Positions 9,025 to 49,177 of a stretch of DNA of 64,000 bases are shown piece after piece; position 1 is the stretch's first letter, and each line of letters starts with the position of its first letter. The position numbers and the translations under genes are program-made. Source of the stretch: Escherichia phage VEc74. Location: sequence record MT932213.1, one strand, 5' to 3'. The notes under the pieces are model-generated. The model did not search any database and had not been told where the DNA came from. It saw only the letters and a list, made by a program, of their open reading frames with translations.

Positions 9025-10344
9025 TCATACATAAAATACATCATAACGACCACGGGTAACACCAACATAAAGAAGTTGTTGAGCTAATTCAGCATCTGCA
9101 TAATGAATACAAGGCGTATAAATGAAAGCACGGTCTACAGACATACCCTGAGCTTTATGGAATGTTGATGCAGGAAGTGCTTTCACTTTACTGAACTGTG
9201 ATTTAGCATCCCAAAAATCGCTCCATGGGGCTTTTCCGCCTTTATTCCAATTTTTATAAGTTTCTGCCGTTTTACCTAAAAATAGGTTAAACTTATACAA
9301 TTCTTCATCGGATGAAATTATTTTAATCTTTTCACGATAATATTCATCATCGCCGTAAGTTTCTACTGTTAAATCCCAATGACGAATTAGATATTCTCCA
9401 GGAACACCACGAGCTTTAACAAATGTTGATGTATACTCTGCTTCTATAATACGAACTAATTGTCCGTTATTAAAAATAATTTCTGACACAGGCTTTCCAT
9501 CAATTTTATATGTTTTAATTAATGGTTCCTGCATTACAATAATTTCACCGACAATAAAATCTTTATCAGTTTCAAAAATCTTTTTACGAATAATGCTATT
9601 TAACTTGTCAACAGATTTATTCGTAAATGCCATTACGCGATTTTCAAACAAATCATCTAGTGATTTGACGATTGAAAAATAATTTACCATAAAATCGCGT
9701 AAAGCGGTATCACCAGTAAATCCACGTACTCCATGCCCGTCAACAACTTTATCATAAATCCACTTACCGTTACGAACGTCAGTAGCTACATCAATAATAG
9801 GAGCATTACTGCGTTTAACTTCAGTAAGTTCACACTGATAAAAATCTTTGTGTGTAAAGAATGGACTGATATAAGCAGTATTTTCTCCTGGGTCAACAGG
9901 TCTAATTTGCTTATTATCACCTATTCCAATTATAGTACACCAAGGTGGAATAGTTGAAAGCAAAATTTTAAATAGCTTTCTATCATACATTGACACTTCG
10001 TCGCAGATTAATACTCTGCATTTAGCTAAATCCGGTACTTCTTTTTGTTCAAAAAGAACGTTTTCTTCATATGTTACCGGGTTAATTTTAAGAATACTAT
10101 GAATAGTACTTGCTTCTTTCCCTGATAGTTTTGAAAGAATCTTTTTAGCTGCATGAGTAGGAGCTGCTAAAATAATACCAGTTTCACCCGTAGATATTAA
10201 AGCTTCAATGATGAACTTAGTAAGAGTAGTCTTACCAGTACCAGCAGGTCCATTAATAGTTACATGATGTTTCTTTTCTTTAATAGCCTTCATAACAATG
10301 TTAAAGGCATTTTTCTGGCCTTCTGTCAAATCATCAAATGTCAT
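9025..10344 (-). CDS. dda: Dda DNA helicase (SF1B)
   Basis: 439-aa ORF with Walker A GPAGTGKTT and helicase motifs; matches T4 Dda length. Confidence 0.85.
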   Translation of the reverse strand: MTFDDLTEGQKNAFNIVMKAIKEKKHHVTINGPAGTGKTTLTKFIIEALISTGETGIILAAPTHAAKKILSKLSGKEASTIHSILKINPVTYEENVLFEQKEVPDLAKCRVLICDEVSMYDRKLFKILLSTIPPWCTIIGIGDNKQIRPVDPGENTAYISPFFTHKDFYQCELTEVKRSNAPIIDVATDVRNGKWIYDKVVDGHGVRGFTGDTALRDFMVNYFSIVKSLDDLFENRVMAFTNKSVDKLNSIIRKKIFETDKDFIVGEIIVMQEPLIKTYKIDGKPVSEIIFNNGQLVRIIEAEYTSTFVKARGVPGEYLIRHWDLTVETYGDDEYYREKIKIISSDEELYKFNLFLGKTAETYKNWNKGGKAPWSDFWDAKSQFSKVKALPASTFHKAQGMSVDRAFIYTPCIHYADAELAQQLLYVGVTRGRYDVFYV

Positions 10345-10652
10345 CGGAAAGTCCCTGCAATTGGAATACTAACAATACGCCCAGTATCTAAAATTCGCTG
10401 ATATAATCTTTGTGTGTCTACGTCAGGCTTAACATGTTTAACTTCTATTTTATTAAACCAAAATTTACGTGGAGTCTCAACTAATCTTGGAATTCCCTTA
10501 CCTAAAGCTAGTTGATACTGCTCTTTAAGAGTGGTAAATACTTTATCAGCAATCTTCCATTCAAAAAATACAGCAGGGCGATGTTCATCAAGCGGAACTG
10601 GCGCCGTAAATCCGTCTTTGTCTCGGTAAACTATCGCATATACATAAACCAT
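10341..10652 (-). CDS. hypothetical protein (dda.1 position)
   Basis: 103-aa ORF. Confidence 0.45.
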   Translation of the reverse strand: MVYVYAIVYRDKDGFTAPVPLDEHRPAVFFEWKIADKVFTTLKEQYQLALGKGIPRLVETPRKFWFNKIEVKHVKPDVDTQRLYQRILDTGRIVSIPIAGTFR

Positions 10653-10653
10653 A

Positions 10654-11400
10654 TTATCCTCGGATAAGTTTAAAAATTGAACAATTCAGCGGATATCCTT
10701 TTTTCAGTTTAAGTTTATCAATAAAAGACAAGTTTTGATACCGCTCTACACCTTGAATAATTTTATCACACATATCATATTGCATTTCTGCTTCTGACAA
10801 CTTTTTCACAATTTTCCAATCCGAGCCTTTAAGAAGAACGTTCAGTTTAACAACTTCAGCGCCTTCTGCTATGCGAGAACCATCAATACGAGCTTTAAGT
10901 GCTATAATCCTCAGCTTAATGTCAGAGGTCTGTTTTGATTTAGAAAGCTGAGAAATGTGTTCAATTCGGTTTTCACGTTTTTTCTGTATAGCTTTAATTT
11001 GATTATAAGTCTTTTTGATTTTAGCCCATTTCTTTTCATCTAAATTTAGTTTATGAACTTTTTTCGCAGATGAACGACCAATTCGCAAAGCAAATAAATC
11101 ACGCTTTTCAATCAACTCTTCTAAAGTATAATCAGAACGAAATGTATTATACTTTTTCTTTACTGCAATAACATTCCCTTTAATGTATCCAATGTTATTA
11201 TCAAAACGTTCTAATGATAATTTCTCTCCTTCAATACGATTATCAAAAGGTTCTCCTGAGTAAGCACAAACTTTTTGATCTAAAATGTTCTTAATGTAAT
11301 TGAAGTCTAAGTTAAAATCTTTAGAACGTCTTTTTGCAGATGCCTGAGTATGCTCTAGACGACGTTTAATTTTACGAATTTGATTATTAGACAGTTTCAT
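10654..11400 (-). CDS. hypothetical basic protein at the srd position
   Basis: 248-aa lysine/arginine-rich ORF between dda.1 and modA. Confidence 0.4.
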   Translation of the reverse strand: MKLSNNQIRKIKRRLEHTQASAKRRSKDFNLDFNYIKNILDQKVCAYSGEPFDNRIEGEKLSLERFDNNIGYIKGNVIAVKKKYNTFRSDYTLEELIEKRDLFALRIGRSSAKKVHKLNLDEKKWAKIKKTYNQIKAIQKKRENRIEHISQLSKSKQTSDIKLRIIALKARIDGSRIAEGAEVVKLNVLLKGSDWKIVKKLSEAEMQYDMCDKIIQGVERYQNLSFIDKLKLKKGYPLNCSIFKLIRG

Positions 11401-11437
11401 ATTTTTCTCACATCTTACGGACGGGTTAACTACTTAT

Positions 11438-11467
11438 ACTATAACATTTTTACTTTAACTTGTAAAC
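11438..11467 (-). promoter_or_regulatory. T4-type early promoter
   Basis: GTTTAC, 17 bp, TATAGT, with an A/T-rich upstream element. Confidence 0.5.
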
Positions 11468-11523
11468 AACTTTATGAAAAATGCTTTAAAACTTTCATGG
11501 TATAATGAATCTAAGTCCTTCCA

Positions 11524-12126
11524 TTATAGATTAAATCCTTCAAAATCAAGAGTATAGATAGTGTATGTTGAATACTTTTTGTACTCATATCTATCTGCAA
11601 TTCTAAATACACTTCCAGCTGGTATCATTACTTCTTGTTCATCTGAAACTAATTCCATATTACGATAACGATGACTATCCGGAAACTTAAAGTTTGGATT
11701 GTATTCTTTACAGCGTAGAGCTTTTATAGCATACTCCTGGAAATTGAATACCATAGGAGCTTTGAATTCAAAAATAACTTGTGTGTTATATTCTAAACCA
11801 GAAGCAAAATGTAGAGCTATATTTTTATCATATGAAGCTGATACTACTTTATCAAATGTAATAATATCAATTCCTTGATTTAATACTTGTTTAGTCTCAG
11901 CTGGAACACCTCTCCAAAGAGGTTTATCGTTTGGTTCCAAACGAGATTTGATTATTTCATTTAACCAAGTATGGTCATCTGGCTTATTAGTAATACAATG
12001 AATTAAAAGTTCAATTTCAGATAAATTAAACCCTTCAGAAAGTAATTCTTCACGAATAGAAGCACGCACCGATGCATCCATTGATTTTATTTTAAAATCT
12101 TTTAGTTGCATTACTGAGTATTTCAT
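11524..12126 (-). CDS. modA: ADP-ribosyltransferase ModA
   Basis: 200-aa ORF with R-S-E type motifs (LWRGV, VSAS, EQEVMIP); tandem with a ModB paralog. Confidence 0.75.
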   Translation of the reverse strand: MKYSVMQLKDFKIKSMDASVRASIREELLSEGFNLSEIELLIHCITNKPDDHTWLNEIIKSRLEPNDKPLWRGVPAETKQVLNQGIDIITFDKVVSASYDKNIALHFASGLEYNTQVIFEFKAPMVFNFQEYAIKALRCKEYNPNFKFPDSHRYRNMELVSDEQEVMIPAGSVFRIADRYEYKKYSTYTIYTLDFEGFNL

Positions 12127-12746
12127 TCAACTACCTCAATATCATAAACTTTAAATGTTCCAAATGAATCGTGTAATTTTTCTTTTGAAATAGAAGTTAT
12201 TCTATACTTTCCAGTTGGAATCATCCATTCTTGTTCACGCACAATCATCATTAAGTTATCAGTACGCTCTGAATCTAGCCCATCAGTATCTTCATACGTG
12301 TACTTAAACTCAGTATTAGGAGAAGAAAGTATAATATCGCTGATATGGTCAGAGTAATTAAAAGCTTTATCAGTTTTTAAACGAAGTATTGTTTCAGTGA
12401 AATATTCAGCATAAGAAAAAGAACACGCTGTATGCAAACTAGTAGTAAATGAATCTACCCTATTTGTTGAAAATACATCTCCAACCTGTAAATTTTCTAT
12501 TATTTCTTTTGTCGATTTTGATATACCACGATATAATTGATAAGGCGATTTAGTTAAATGCTTTTTAATGATTTCATTTAAATGCTTATGAAGAGCTTCA
12601 TTCTTTTTGGCTTCCATACATTGCCAAAGAATTGACTGTTCAAAGTCAGTAAATTTTTCACAGACCTTTTTATACATATCATATTGAAAATCAACGCTTT
12701 CAGCTTTTATAGATAACTGTTCAACATCTGCAAGATTAATAATCAT
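12123..12746 (-). CDS. modB: ADP-ribosyltransferase ModB
   Basis: 207-aa paralog of ModA (YRGIS, EQEWMIP). Confidence 0.75.
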   Translation of the reverse strand: MIINLADVEQLSIKAESVDFQYDMYKKVCEKFTDFEQSILWQCMEAKKNEALHKHLNEIIKKHLTKSPYQLYRGISKSTKEIIENLQVGDVFSTNRVDSFTTSLHTACSFSYAEYFTETILRLKTDKAFNYSDHISDIILSSPNTEFKYTYEDTDGLDSERTDNLMMIVREQEWMIPTGKYRITSISKEKLHDSFGTFKVYDIEVVE

Positions 12747-12772
12747 GATAGCCTCCGTATACTTCAGAAGCT

Positions 12773-12802
12773 ATCATATCATTGTTAGAAAGGAAAGTAA
12801 AC
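12773..12802 (-). promoter_or_regulatory. T4-type early promoter
   Basis: GTTTAC, 17 bp, TATGAT upstream of modB. Confidence 0.5.
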
Positions 12803-15797: not shown

Positions 15798-15868
15798 TAT
15801 TTTTCCTTTCAATTCATGGATTAGTAGATTAATTATACAATAAATATATAAAGCAATAAGGAGGACAT

Positions 15869-16069: not shown

Positions 16070-17094
16070 ATCTTAGCATATTTAGATAACCGCATTTTAG
16101 CCATCAACCCCTGGGCAATATTATTTTTCATATATTCCATAATTTGTTCAGGGGTTGCACCTTCCTTTCTAATCATATCATTAACATCTTTTGATTTCCA
16201 GGGAGATTTATCCCAAAACATAACCCTTTCTCCTGCATCAACTAATTTAGTCATTCGCTTAATAGTGTCAGGATGACGAGGTTCATTATCTAAAACCCAC
16301 ACTCGTCTATCTTTAAATGGAACAATTTCTAGGTCTAATTGACCACCCGTAATAGCTATACCATTTTCAATAAAAAGTGAATCTATAGGTCCTTCTAGAA
16401 CATATACATCGCCATCTTTAACTCGTTCGACTCCATAGATTTTTGTTGCCTCAGGATAAGCTTTGATGGTGATATATTTTTGAGGAGCATCTTTCTTTAA
16501 TGCACGTCCTTGAAAAGACTCAGCTTTTCCACTAGCATTATAAATTGGAATAACGAGACGAGGCTCAGGTATTTCCTTTTTATATGTTCCCGGTGCTATG
16601 CTATTAACTAATTTAGGCCATTCAGTTGTAAACCAAAGATATTTCCATTTATCCTTTGGAATACAACGAGCTTTTACGTATTTTATAATTGGATGGTCTT
16701 CCGTCAGTTTATCTAATCTAACACATGACGGAAGAGATTTAATTATTTTCTTCTCAGGTTGTTTAGGAAGTTCTTTAGGTTTTTCTACTGGACGACTTTT
16801 ACCTTTTTCTTTTCTTATTTCAAAGATATACTCACGATATAAATCAGGTTCAAACTCCTTTAAATATATTCCGATTGGTGCATGATAGTTACAGTTATAA
16901 CAATGAATATTTCCTTCATTATTATCACCATAATACCATCCACGAGCTTTATTCTGGTCGGTTTTTGAATCTCCACAAACAGGGCATCTAAACCGTAATT
17001 TAAAAGTTGAACTATTATTTACTTGTGTGAATTTAGGTAAATGAGCTAATGCACGATACGCAAACTCATTATCAATCCAAGGTATTGATGACAT
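16066..17094 (-). CDS. 61: DNA primase gp61
   Basis: 342-aa ORF with an N-terminal zinc ribbon (CPVCGDS...HCYNC) and a TOPRIM-like core. Confidence 0.85.
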   Translation of the reverse strand: MSSIPWIDNEFAYRALAHLPKFTQVNNSSTFKLRFRCPVCGDSKTDQNKARGWYYGDNNEGNIHCYNCNYHAPIGIYLKEFEPDLYREYIFEIRKEKGKSRPVEKPKELPKQPEKKIIKSLPSCVRLDKLTEDHPIIKYVKARCIPKDKWKYLWFTTEWPKLVNSIAPGTYKKEIPEPRLVIPIYNASGKAESFQGRALKKDAPQKYITIKAYPEATKIYGVERVKDGDVYVLEGPIDSLFIENGIAITGGQLDLEIVPFKDRRVWVLDNEPRHPDTIKRMTKLVDAGERVMFWDKSPWKSKDVNDMIRKEGATPEQIMEYMKNNIAQGLMAKMRLSKYAKI

Positions 17095-47294: not shown

Positions 47295-48209
47295 TTAAGA
47301 TTTAAGTAAATCAACAATTTTAATTAACTTTTCACGCTCAGATTTAGCTTTACTACTCAATCCGGATAGTCTGAAAATTTCATCGTCATATTGTTGAATA
47401 GAAATATTCAGCTCTTCAATTTGCTTATTAAAATAATCAATTTGTTCAGAATGTTTTTCGTTACTACGAACTGGTACAGGTTTTGTAGGCAATTTAGTTA
47501 AACTGGATTCATCCGGGCGATAAATTAAAATGCAATTTGAACCAATAGGGCATTTTGCACCAGATGAATATTCTAATGTTCCGGCTTCTTTTAAAACTTC
47601 AAAAGCTAAACAGAGATGATGCCCCATATTGACATAATCTGTAGAGTGAGCGCTGACGTAATAATCATCTCCACGAGTACTAAATTTAAAGCATTTAAGG
47701 TCTTCTGTATTATTAGTTTTAAAAATCATTTGTTTATCTAGACCTTTAGCCAATCGAGCGCCTAATGCTAATAATCGTCGTTGATTTTCCCACAAATCCG
47801 CAATCATTTGGTCGAATGATAATTTCGGCATTAGTCGACCATAAAGGTCGTATCCTTTATTATAATTGCGAAGGATTTCACTCGCATTAATACGAGACAA
47901 TGCTCCAATTTTATTAAGGGCTTTCATAATGCGATTAGATAAACTCATTCCAGACCCGTTTGTTCGCTGTAAATGTTTTTCTAATCCAAATCCAATATCA
48001 ACTTTAAATTTATCTAAAATTTCAGCATGAACATCTCTGTCAATAACATTCAAATCCAAAGTTGGGTTAAATCTATGAAAAAATTTATCTGGCTCTCCAC
48101 GACGAAATACAGTCCATTCATTCATCATTTTTTTATTAACTAAAGATTTAATTACTGCATTGACATTATTAATTACTACTGACATATTTTCCTCACTCAA
48201 TTTTACCAA
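47295..48209 (-). CDS. hypothetical protein, paralog family member D
   Basis: 304-aa ORF. Confidence 0.55.
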   Translation of the reverse strand: MVKLSEENMSVVINNVNAVIKSLVNKKMMNEWTVFRRGEPDKFFHRFNPTLDLNVIDRDVHAEILDKFKVDIGFGLEKHLQRTNGSGMSLSNRIMKALNKIGALSRINASEILRNYNKGYDLYGRLMPKLSFDQMIADLWENQRRLLALGARLAKGLDKQMIFKTNNTEDLKCFKFSTRGDDYYVSAHSTDYVNMGHHLCLAFEVLKEAGTLEYSSGAKCPIGSNCILIYRPDESSLTKLPTKPVPVRSNEKHSEQIDYFNKQIEELNISIQQYDDEIFRLSGLSSKAKSEREKLIKIVDLLKS

Positions 48210-48594
48210 TTACGCGGAATAAGATTGAACAGACTATATAAGTACCACATATAGATTGAACTAATGCCATTCCAAAGAACCAAACAATATTATCAAACCA
48301 TGTCTGTTTTACGTCGAAAGGACGTAAACTTACAGTAATATTATCACCTTTTTCTATTGATGAATACATCTCTGGGGAAATATATTCGCTAAATCTATAA
48401 CCGTCTTTGAGTTCATATACAGCAATAAACGATAAACTAGACCCCTTTCCTTGAGTTCCTGTAAGGGTATTAACTACAGTAACATCATAATCTTTATAAT
48501 GCATATAATCATTAATAGCATAATAACCATATGCAACTACTACACATAAACAGCATATCAATAAATTCAATCTTTTAATTATCAACTGTTTCAT
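48193..48594 (-). CDS. membrane protein
   Basis: 133-aa ORF with N- and C-terminal hydrophobic segments. Confidence 0.5.
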   Translation of the reverse strand: MKQLIIKRLNLLICCLCVVVAYGYYAINDYMHYKDYDVTVVNTLTGTQGKGSSLSFIAVYELKDGYRFSEYISPEMYSSIEKGDNITVSLRPFDVKQTWFDNIVWFFGMALVQSICGTYIVCSILFRVIGKIE

Positions 48595-48623
48595 AATAAT
48601 CTCAATTAAAAGGGCTTAGAACC

Positions 48624-48648
48624 ATTATACCATCCTTAGTATAAAGCG
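48624..48648 (-). promoter_or_regulatory. middle-promoter candidate (CGCTTTA box, TGGTATAAT)
   Basis: box, 12-bp spacer, and extended -10 upstream of the 48594 start. Confidence 0.3.
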
Positions 48649-48649
48649 G

Positions 48650-49177
48650 TTATGCGAGTACCGTCTTTAACCGTTCTTCAAACTTCCGAAGAGTATTCTG
48701 GCGTTCAGCTCTTTGCTTTTTGTAAGTTTCGATACGCTCTGAAATGAGAGTGTATCGTTCATTTACTGATTCTTTCATAAAATCAGGAATTTCACGAGAA
48801 GCTTTAATCTCGTCAAATTTATCAATAACAGCTTGCTCTTCAGCAATTAAGTTATCATACATCAAAATATCTTTCTTGATGAACTCAATATCTTCTTGAG
48901 TTACACGAGATAATTTAGATGCTTTATCCTTTTTGTACTGTTCGTTAGTATCACGAGACCAGTGTAATGTACGATTTTTATTCGTATTTTTGTAAATTTC
49001 TACAATACCAATCTCATCAATAATAACGATCCAATTCCAACGTGATTTGTAAATTTGTCCTCCATCAACAGTGATTTCACCTCCGATTGAGATGTCATTA
49101 AAGAACTTGCTTTGTGCTTCAGATTTAAATTTACCATCGTTGTAATTTACCAGGTTGAAAATATCTTTAGCGTTCAT
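48650..49177 (-). CDS. hypothetical protein
   Basis: 175-aa ORF. Confidence 0.5.
   Translation of the reverse strand: MNAKDIFNLVNYNDGKFKSEAQSKFFNDISIGGEITVDGGQIYKSRWNWIVIIDEIGIVEIYKNTNKNRTLHWSRDTNEQYKKDKASKLSRVTQEDIEFIKKDILMYDNLIAEEQAVIDKFDEIKASREIPDFMKESVNERYTLISERIETYKKQRAERQNTLRKFEERLKTVLA

Follow-up and report, generated by a model that had tools for sequence, protein, structure and literature searches.

At the middle promoters of bacteriophage T4, AsiA reshapes sigma-70 region 4 and MotA binds a box at -30, with the contacts made to the -10 element and to TGn left unchanged (PMC2988021). The consensus for these promoters is (a/t)(a/t)(a/t)TGCTTtA followed after 12 ± 1 bp by TAtaaT, with TGn optional; about half of the T4 middle promoters carry TGn (PMC2988021). 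Fifty-eight such promoters have been mapped (Hinton 2010, Table 1). Sigma appropriation has its reference system in T4, and the cataloguing of T4 promoters goes back decades, yet the site considered here, a plus-strand motif between modA and srd, is not among the 58, the nearest entry in that table being Pdda.1 at 11138. It conforms to the consensus of the mapped promoters and, like them, is presumed to be activated by MotA and AsiA.

Two T4 promoters are especially close to the modA/srd site. PuvsY has a MotA box, a 12-13 bp spacer, TGGTATAAT and then GAATCTAAGTCC(A/T)TCCA, as does the modA/srd site, and both promoters are conserved across genera. PuvsY precedes the gene that it expresses, has a mapped start and is the primer promoter of a proven origin (oriF), whereas the modA/srd site is directed at the 3' end of an opposite-strand gene, has no ORF to express, and has a start that is predicted. 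The second is P34i, the oriG promoter inside gene 34, which is a listed, mapped promoter antisense to its surrounding gene (Hinton 2010, Table 1; T4 record). Like the modA/srd site, it is MotA-type, antisense to the surrounding gene and without a coding role; unlike that site, it lies inside a late gene, belongs to an established origin, has the transcribed sequence TATAATGGTCCCAGAGAGTTCC and yields an RNA richer in purines. The modA/srd site would be of a known kind, a MotA-dependent middle promoter that is non-coding and antisense like P34i, and it is deeply conserved and belongs to the PuvsY subtype.

A homologous plus-strand site between srd and modA has been listed in RB69 as 'Pm:12081' (AAATGCTTTA, 13 bp, TATAATGGTTC). 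It is a hidden Markov model hit with the low score of 7.9, given in a supplementary list, undiscussed and with no mention of its conservation or antisense orientation (Nolan et al. 2006, Additional file 4), and its homology to the modA/srd site was verified in the RB69 sequence. A T4 dRNA-seq study reports 150 starts, of which 22 are antisense (bioRxiv 10.1101/2024.04.04.588121). Searches of the open literature found no description of a MotA-dependent antisense promoter at modA, and none that links 'MotA-dependent' with 'antisense' for T4.

The window, meaning the whole 64,000-nucleotide stretch that was analysed, is a segment of a Tequatrovirus genome, and the 401 bases around the motif are 99.3% identical to T6 and 98.5% identical to T4. 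At the motif locus the T4 coordinate (NC_000866) is the window coordinate plus 384, and the T4 sequence of the motif is identical to that of the window. Every gene at the locus lies on the minus strand: modB (12123-12746), modA (11524-12126), which encodes the RNA polymerase ADP-ribosyltransferase and is the gene faced by the promoter, srd (10654-11400), whose upstream region carries the motif, dda.1 (10341-10652) and dda (9025-10344).

The motif itself is read on the plus strand. Its MotA box, AAATGCTTTA (11479-11488, centred at about -30), agrees with (a/t)(a/t)(a/t)TGCTT(t/c)A, having the core TGCTTTA at 11482-11488 preceded by AAA at 11479-11481. A 12-bp spacer, AAACTTTCATGG (11489-11500), contains TG at 11498-11499 and so extends the -10 hexamer TATAAT (11501-11506) to TGn; a sigma-70 -10 element of full sequence, at a 12-bp distance and with TG, is therefore present. 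The discriminator and initial transcribed region, GAATCTAAGTCCTTCCA, occupies 11507-11523, with the predicted +1 at 11513, the first A of AAGTCC. A sequence-only reading of the window had described a MotA-box match with a -10 element twelve bp later as a textbook middle-promoter arrangement directed into the 3' end of modA on the opposite strand. The letters do fit the published consensus (PMC2988021), and the position of modA at 11524-12126 on the minus strand bears out the direction. Two details needed adjustment. The start given at 11482 is right for the T of the core TGCTTTA, but AATGCTTTA begins at 11480 (11480-11488); likewise, the 12-bp gap holds for TGCTTTA to TATAAT, but AATGCTTTA is only 9 bp from TGGTATAAT (11498-11506).

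How often such an arrangement might arise by chance was estimated with 300 dinucleotide-preserving shuffles. The loose form WWWTGCTTYA-N11-13-TANNNT is expected 0.44 times per strand, falling to 0.04 when the -10 is fixed as TATAAT, and the full form of the motif 0.003 times per strand. The strict consensus is matched once on the plus strand of the 64 kb, by the modA/srd motif, and six times on the minus strand. In one genome alone the loose form could be a chance occurrence; the full form is unlikely to be one, with the proviso that the pattern was specified after the fact. A functionless match, arising by coincidence or as a by-product of the A/T-rich UP element that serves the srd early promoter, would find some support in the figure of 0.44 for the loose consensus and in the absence of the site from the list of mapped promoters, and the figure of 0.003 for the full form speaks against it. 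Comparison with other phages bears on the same question.

The srd neighbourhoods of other Straboviridae genera were collected by tblastn with Srd as the handle; a single-protein ModA query of IMG/VR returned close relatives only and was replaced by the Srd tblastn together with an Srd alignment. The gene order of ADP-ribosyltransferase gene, srd, dda.1 and dda occurs in Mosig-, Dhaka-, Karam-, Winkler-, Gelderland-, Jiaoda-, Teguna- and Krischvirus, and a different gene stands upstream of srd in Acinetobacter phage Minot, Serratia phage PS2 and Morganella phage MP1. When both strands of each 4.3-kb locus were scanned for TGCTTY-N13-14-TATAAT, a single match per locus was obtained in seven to nine other genera, and in Mosig-, Dhaka-, Karam-, Winkler-, Gelderland-, Jiaoda- and Tegunavirus that single match lies just upstream of srd on the strand opposite the genes. 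Among the IMG/VR srd loci of the Srd alignment set, 42 of 80 have one antisense motif upstream of srd, and the same 1.26-kb stretches contain just three matches on the sense strand. Three Mosigvirus-like loci (L032, L033 and L035) have a CGCTTTT variant that was detected with a relaxed pattern only.

Altogether, 60 loci provided 28 distinct versions of the motif, all of them antisense to srd, and the carriers comprise Tequatro-, Mosig-, Dhaka-, Karam-, Winkler-, Gelderland-, Jiaoda- and Tegunavirus, further IMG/VR groups and Acinetobacter phages. All 28 versions have the GCTT core and TATAAT, an invariance that is partly by construction because the search required GCTT and T[AT]TAAT. Other features were not demanded by the search. 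The three bases before the core are A or T in 22 to 26 of the versions, a G right after TATAAT and a T four bases after it are present in every one, and of the GG or TGn found before the -10 element, TGn occurs in 15 of the 28, the same share as among T4 middle promoters. The spacer is free in sequence and 12-13 bp in length, or 14 bp in the Acinetobacter phages. Within Tequatrovirus (11 sequences), substitutions are confined to the spacer and to TGCTT(T>C)A, a change that the consensus allows. Both boxes and their spacing are kept across genera in which the identity of Srd is only 35-70%. In two Acinetobacter-phage-like IMG/VR loci (L077 and L078), a TATAAT(G/A)G(G/T)TC core is kept upstream of srd together with a displaced MotA box or an additional -10, which suggests insertions within the promoter in these lineages.

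The distribution of the motif may be set beside that of MotA. A tblastn search detected homologues of MotA in the motif-bearing phage groups of Escherichia, Klebsiella, Enterobacter, Salmonella, Serratia, Yersinia and Acinetobacter, and T4 encodes both activating proteins, its motA and asiA being annotated at 161-163.6 kb, outside the window. In the srd loci of Krischvirus/RB49-like phages that were scanned, the motif is absent; neither motA nor middle promoters have been found in RB49-like phages (PMC1524935). It is also absent from Muldoonvirus and Gualtarvirus, in which srd is preceded by gaps of 33 and 3 bp, respectively.

The srd early promoter of the window (TTTACA, 17 bp, TATAGT, with a preceding TG; 11466-11438, minus strand) is back to back with the middle promoter, and their predicted starts are about 82 bp apart. 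An early promoter at 11438-11467 had been proposed from the sequence, and it is real: the hexamers and their 17-bp spacing are as given, and the record of phage Lutter annotates a 'promoter' at the equivalent place. The MotA box was also correctly placed within the upstream-element zone of that promoter, of which it occupies about -48 to -57, and this overlap is the remaining point in favour of a functionless by-product of the UP element. The arrangement is not constant, however. In Tequatro-, Mosig- and Dhakavirus and in the Acinetobacter phages the motif is upstream of the early promoter and back to back with it (by about 100 bp in the Acinetobacter phages), and in Karam-, Winkler-, Gelderland- and Jiaodavirus the order is reversed, with the motif downstream of the early promoter, in the srd leader, where the function of an UP element is impossible. 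A role for the motif solely as an UP element of the srd early promoter was accordingly rejected, since it lies downstream in these four genera and a placement at -40 to -60 is not fixed.

Because its position relative to the srd early promoter is not conserved, the motif is an autonomous unit. Conservation of two boxes at a fixed distance around a free spacer also makes an RNA element acting on the sense strand unlikely. The sequence-only reading had left the choice between coincidence and an antisense RNA open; coincidence is now highly improbable, in view of 28 distinct versions in more than 10 lineages, with strand and spacing kept and the spacer sequence free. The boxes and spacing kept across genera, the free spacer and the shifting position relative to the early promoter all favour a middle promoter, and on sequence grounds the modA/srd motif is very probably a functional promoter of the MotA type.

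A further element was observed in the srd leader. At 11411-11424 on the minus strand (CCGTCCGTAAGATG), a small, conserved, hairpin-forming element reads CGTCCGTAAGA(T/C)G. It is present in Tequatro-, Mosig- and Dhakavirus, Jiaodavirus has it inside the spacer of the antisense promoter, and in some Tequatrovirus genomes a 7-bp deletion adjoins it.

The near-identity of the modA/srd site to PuvsY extends beyond the promoter boxes. Aligned on the published start of PuvsY (T4 115371, the first A of AAGTCC), the T4 promoter reads TAATGCTTCA-CGTTAAAACGTGG-TATAAT-GAATCT|AAGTCCATCCA, and from -15 to +11 the two sites are identical at 25 of 26 bases. By analogy with the mapped PuvsY start, +1 of the modA/srd promoter is placed at window 11513 (T4 11897), which supports, to within a base, an earlier prediction of a start near 11512. 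The exact 18-mer TATAATGAATCTAAGTCC adjoins only srd or uvsY in the T4-like genomes of IMG/VR. When the uvsY upstream regions were fetched from the same genomes as the srd loci, the two promoters of other genera were found to share a consensus after the -10 element, roughly TATAATG-R-N-T-Y-W-A-R-G-T/G-Y-C, and the mean downstream similarity of the srd site to uvsY promoters was 9.0 of 16 positions, compared with 6.1 of 16 for the other middle-promoter-like sites of the window. Co-variation of the two promoters within genomes was not significant (permutation P = 0.22), so the near-identity in Tequatrovirus would reflect a subtype common to both promoters or some local event, and would not be due to their concerted evolution across genera.

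A third promoter of this subtype appears at 48612-48651 on the minus strand (CCGCTTTA, 12 bp, TATAATGGTTCTAAGCCC). It differs from GGTATAATGAATCTAAGTCC at 3 positions, a degree of match expected 0.02 times in shuffles, and lies about 32 nt upstream of the ATG of a membrane-like ORF of 133 amino acids (48594..48193). Since it precedes this ORF, the subtype is not restricted to origins. The sequence after the -10 element that is common to the modA/srd site, PuvsY and the third promoter points to a possible, as yet undescribed subclass of middle promoters.

The RNA that would be made from the modA/srd promoter begins 11 nt before the modA stop codon (11524-11526, on the other strand). It is predicted to be an untranslated plus-strand RNA antisense to modA (11513-12126) and may run on into modB (12123-12746); the promoter is thus opposite a target gene and directed into it. 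No conserved plus-strand ORF was found downstream in 16 lineages, which argues that the product is non-coding. An unannotated small protein encoded on the plus strand inside modA would have candidates in two ORFs, at 11561-11668 (35 aa, GTG) and 11699-11878 (59 aa, TTG). Such a protein is hardly credible, however, as the ORFs near the start vary in position, frame, start codon and length across the 16 lineages, a convincing ribosome-binding site is missing from all of them, and in four lineages no ORF reaches 25 aa. In Yersinia phage phiR1-RT (L018), a possible unannotated ORF of about 24 codons (GGAG, then ATGAGCAAATATATC...) was noted in a 156-bp gap, between the antisense promoter and the annotated srd start.

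With regard to structure and extent, the first 148 nt of the T4-type RNA fold no better than shuffled sequences (z = +0.33), and a search of the 260 nt after the -10 element detected no intrinsic terminator. The first 100 nt are rich in C relative to G (C/G of 1.55). Untranslated RNA with more C than G is of the type terminated by Rho. Two adjacent terminator-like hairpins with weak T-tails were observed inside modA, at 11908-11923 and 11927-11944 on the plus strand, about 400 nt into the predicted antisense RNA; the region 10500-12800 has 4 terminator-like sites, compared with 0.6 expected. An Rfam scan of the T4 locus and those of eight relatives, at permissive E-values, returned nothing relevant, and no similarity of the RNA between genera was found beyond about +10.

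The Acinetobacter phages present a different picture. There, about 115-150 nt of non-coding sequence separate the promoter from a strong bidirectional terminator downstream, and the predicted RNA is structured in comparison with shuffled sequences (z = -2.2). Loci L022 (approximately 1381-1560), L072 and L074 display the promoter, then GGTTCTACCGGTTCACCGCTC..., a G+C-rich stem region and a bidirectional terminator, AAAGGAGCC...GGCTCCTTT, and may produce a discrete non-coding RNA of about 115-150 nt. It could be supposed from these phages that the conserved product is generally a discrete small RNA, acting in trans or having a function of its own, with the overlap of modA incidental in T4-type phages; the conserved G after the -10 element, the T four bases after it and the A(R)G start context across genera are in keeping with such an RNA. 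It is nevertheless improbable as a general account, given that the T4 type has neither a terminator within 260 nt nor a significant fold, that Rfam has no match, that sequences are unrelated between genera past about +10, and that the conserved start context is common to promoters of ordinary mRNAs.

The main rival makes the site the promoter of a replication origin that works through an R-loop, like oriF and oriG; its MotA-dependent transcript would remain paired with a readily unwound stretch immediately downstream and would prime rightward leading-strand synthesis. Each of oriF and oriG consists of a middle promoter and an A+T-rich unwinding element within about 100 bp (PMC3016281). The modA/srd site has by its sequence the middle-mode promoter of such an origin, one identical at 25 of 26 bases to that of oriF, and it is a deeply conserved promoter without a gene to express, for which P34i of oriG, antisense and non-coding, is the precedent (T4 record). 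Downstream of the start, A+T content is 70% (+1 to +50) and 74% (+51 to +100), compared with 70 and 70% at oriF and 60 and 72% at oriG, although against a window mean of 65.6 ± 6.7 these values, compatible as they are with an unwinding element, are non-discriminating in so A+T-rich a genome. Arrays of nascent DNA put 'oriA' near soc (PMC3016281), and the promoter is about 3.4 kb away and points towards soc.

Several observations make an origin here unlikely all the same. None has been reported at 11.9 kb, and the T4 record has oriA at 16763 on the minus strand, 4.9 kb distant and primed by a gene 56 transcript; assignment of the modA/srd site to oriA was rejected because of that position and strand. 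Purines make up 45% of the first 100 nt (with C exceeding G), compared with 63% for oriF and 56% for oriG, which is, weakly, less favourable for a stable RNA-DNA hybrid. Finally, the PuvsY-like subtype appears also to drive ordinary mRNAs, as from window position 48651 upstream of the 133-aa ORF. With respect to oriA, a middle-promoter-like site was observed at approximately 15823-15858 on the minus strand (TATTGCTTTA, 11 bp, TATAAT-TAATCTAC), with AATCTA after the -10 element. It is probably the counterpart of T4 P56/69, whose transcript is named as the oriA primer in the T4 record (rep_origin at T4 16763).

The reading preferred here is that the modA/srd site is a MotA/AsiA promoter that makes an untranslated antisense RNA and thereby helps to shut off the early modB-modA-srd unit, to which as a whole we would give a probability of roughly 0.5. 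As MotA and AsiA accumulate, the host RNA polymerase would bind at the MotA box (11479-11488) and TGnTATAAT (11498-11506) and begin plus-strand transcription at about 11513. The untranslated and unstructured RNA would then run head-on into the early unit, antisense to the 3' end of modA and possibly to modB, and the modB-modA-srd unit would be switched off at the early-to-middle transition. Two routes to shut-off may be envisaged, one through competition with, or occlusion of, the srd early promoter, the other through head-on transcription and antisense pairing over modA. Firing in vivo, the extent of the RNA and its regulatory effect are what we infer from this arrangement.

A number of features favour shut-off. 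The motif is always within about 100 bp of the srd early promoter, and in nine genera it is oriented so as to fire into the ADP-ribosyltransferase gene. In two genera the predicted starts coincide: the face-to-face promoters of a Karamvirus locus (L014; sense TTTACA, 17 bp, TAGAAT ending at 1723, antisense -10 at 1742-1737) both predict a start at about 1730, and the sense and antisense promoters of a Gelderlandvirus locus (L016) both predict one at about 1728. With starts predicted at the same base pair, the sense and antisense promoters of Karam- and Gelderlandvirus would be mutually exclusive. Furthermore, ModA is highly toxic to E. coli, and how T4 turns off its early promoters is stated as unknown (PMC2988021); a toxic early product and an unexplained stop to early transcription both lend weight to a shut-off mechanism.

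Other features restrict the forms that shut-off could take. No single geometry of occlusion is conserved, because genera differ in where the motif stands with respect to the early promoter and to the modA stop codon. Nor can an antisense role specific to modA be universal, since the Acinetobacter phages have a gene other than modA upstream, and have a bidirectional terminator about 115-150 nt downstream. The first ten or so transcribed bases are conserved and shared with PuvsY, which a model of antisense action or interference does not require. The modA/srd site is the sole one of its kind on the plus strand in 64 kb, and so is not a general shut-off device. Shut-off as such, considered apart from the rest of the reading, is put at somewhat short of even odds. 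Stated in its boldest form, the site would be either a MotA-triggered reversal of polymerase flow that silences a toxic ADP-ribosyltransferase unit or a third, overlooked R-loop origin of the oriF/oriG class, and this we offer as a tentative proposal.

The modA/srd site is among the best matches to the middle-promoter consensus and is conserved more deeply than the neighbouring early promoter. A conserved MotA promoter without a gene would point to a regulator of the early-to-middle switch or to the promoter of a replication origin. The rules for origin R-loops are an open question in a review of the subject (PMC3016281), and a single promoter mutation at this defined intergenic site can address both ideas. 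If it is true that MotA triggers such a switch at the modA/srd junction, the switch would offer a specific explanation of how early transcription, whose shut-off is unexplained, comes to a stop.
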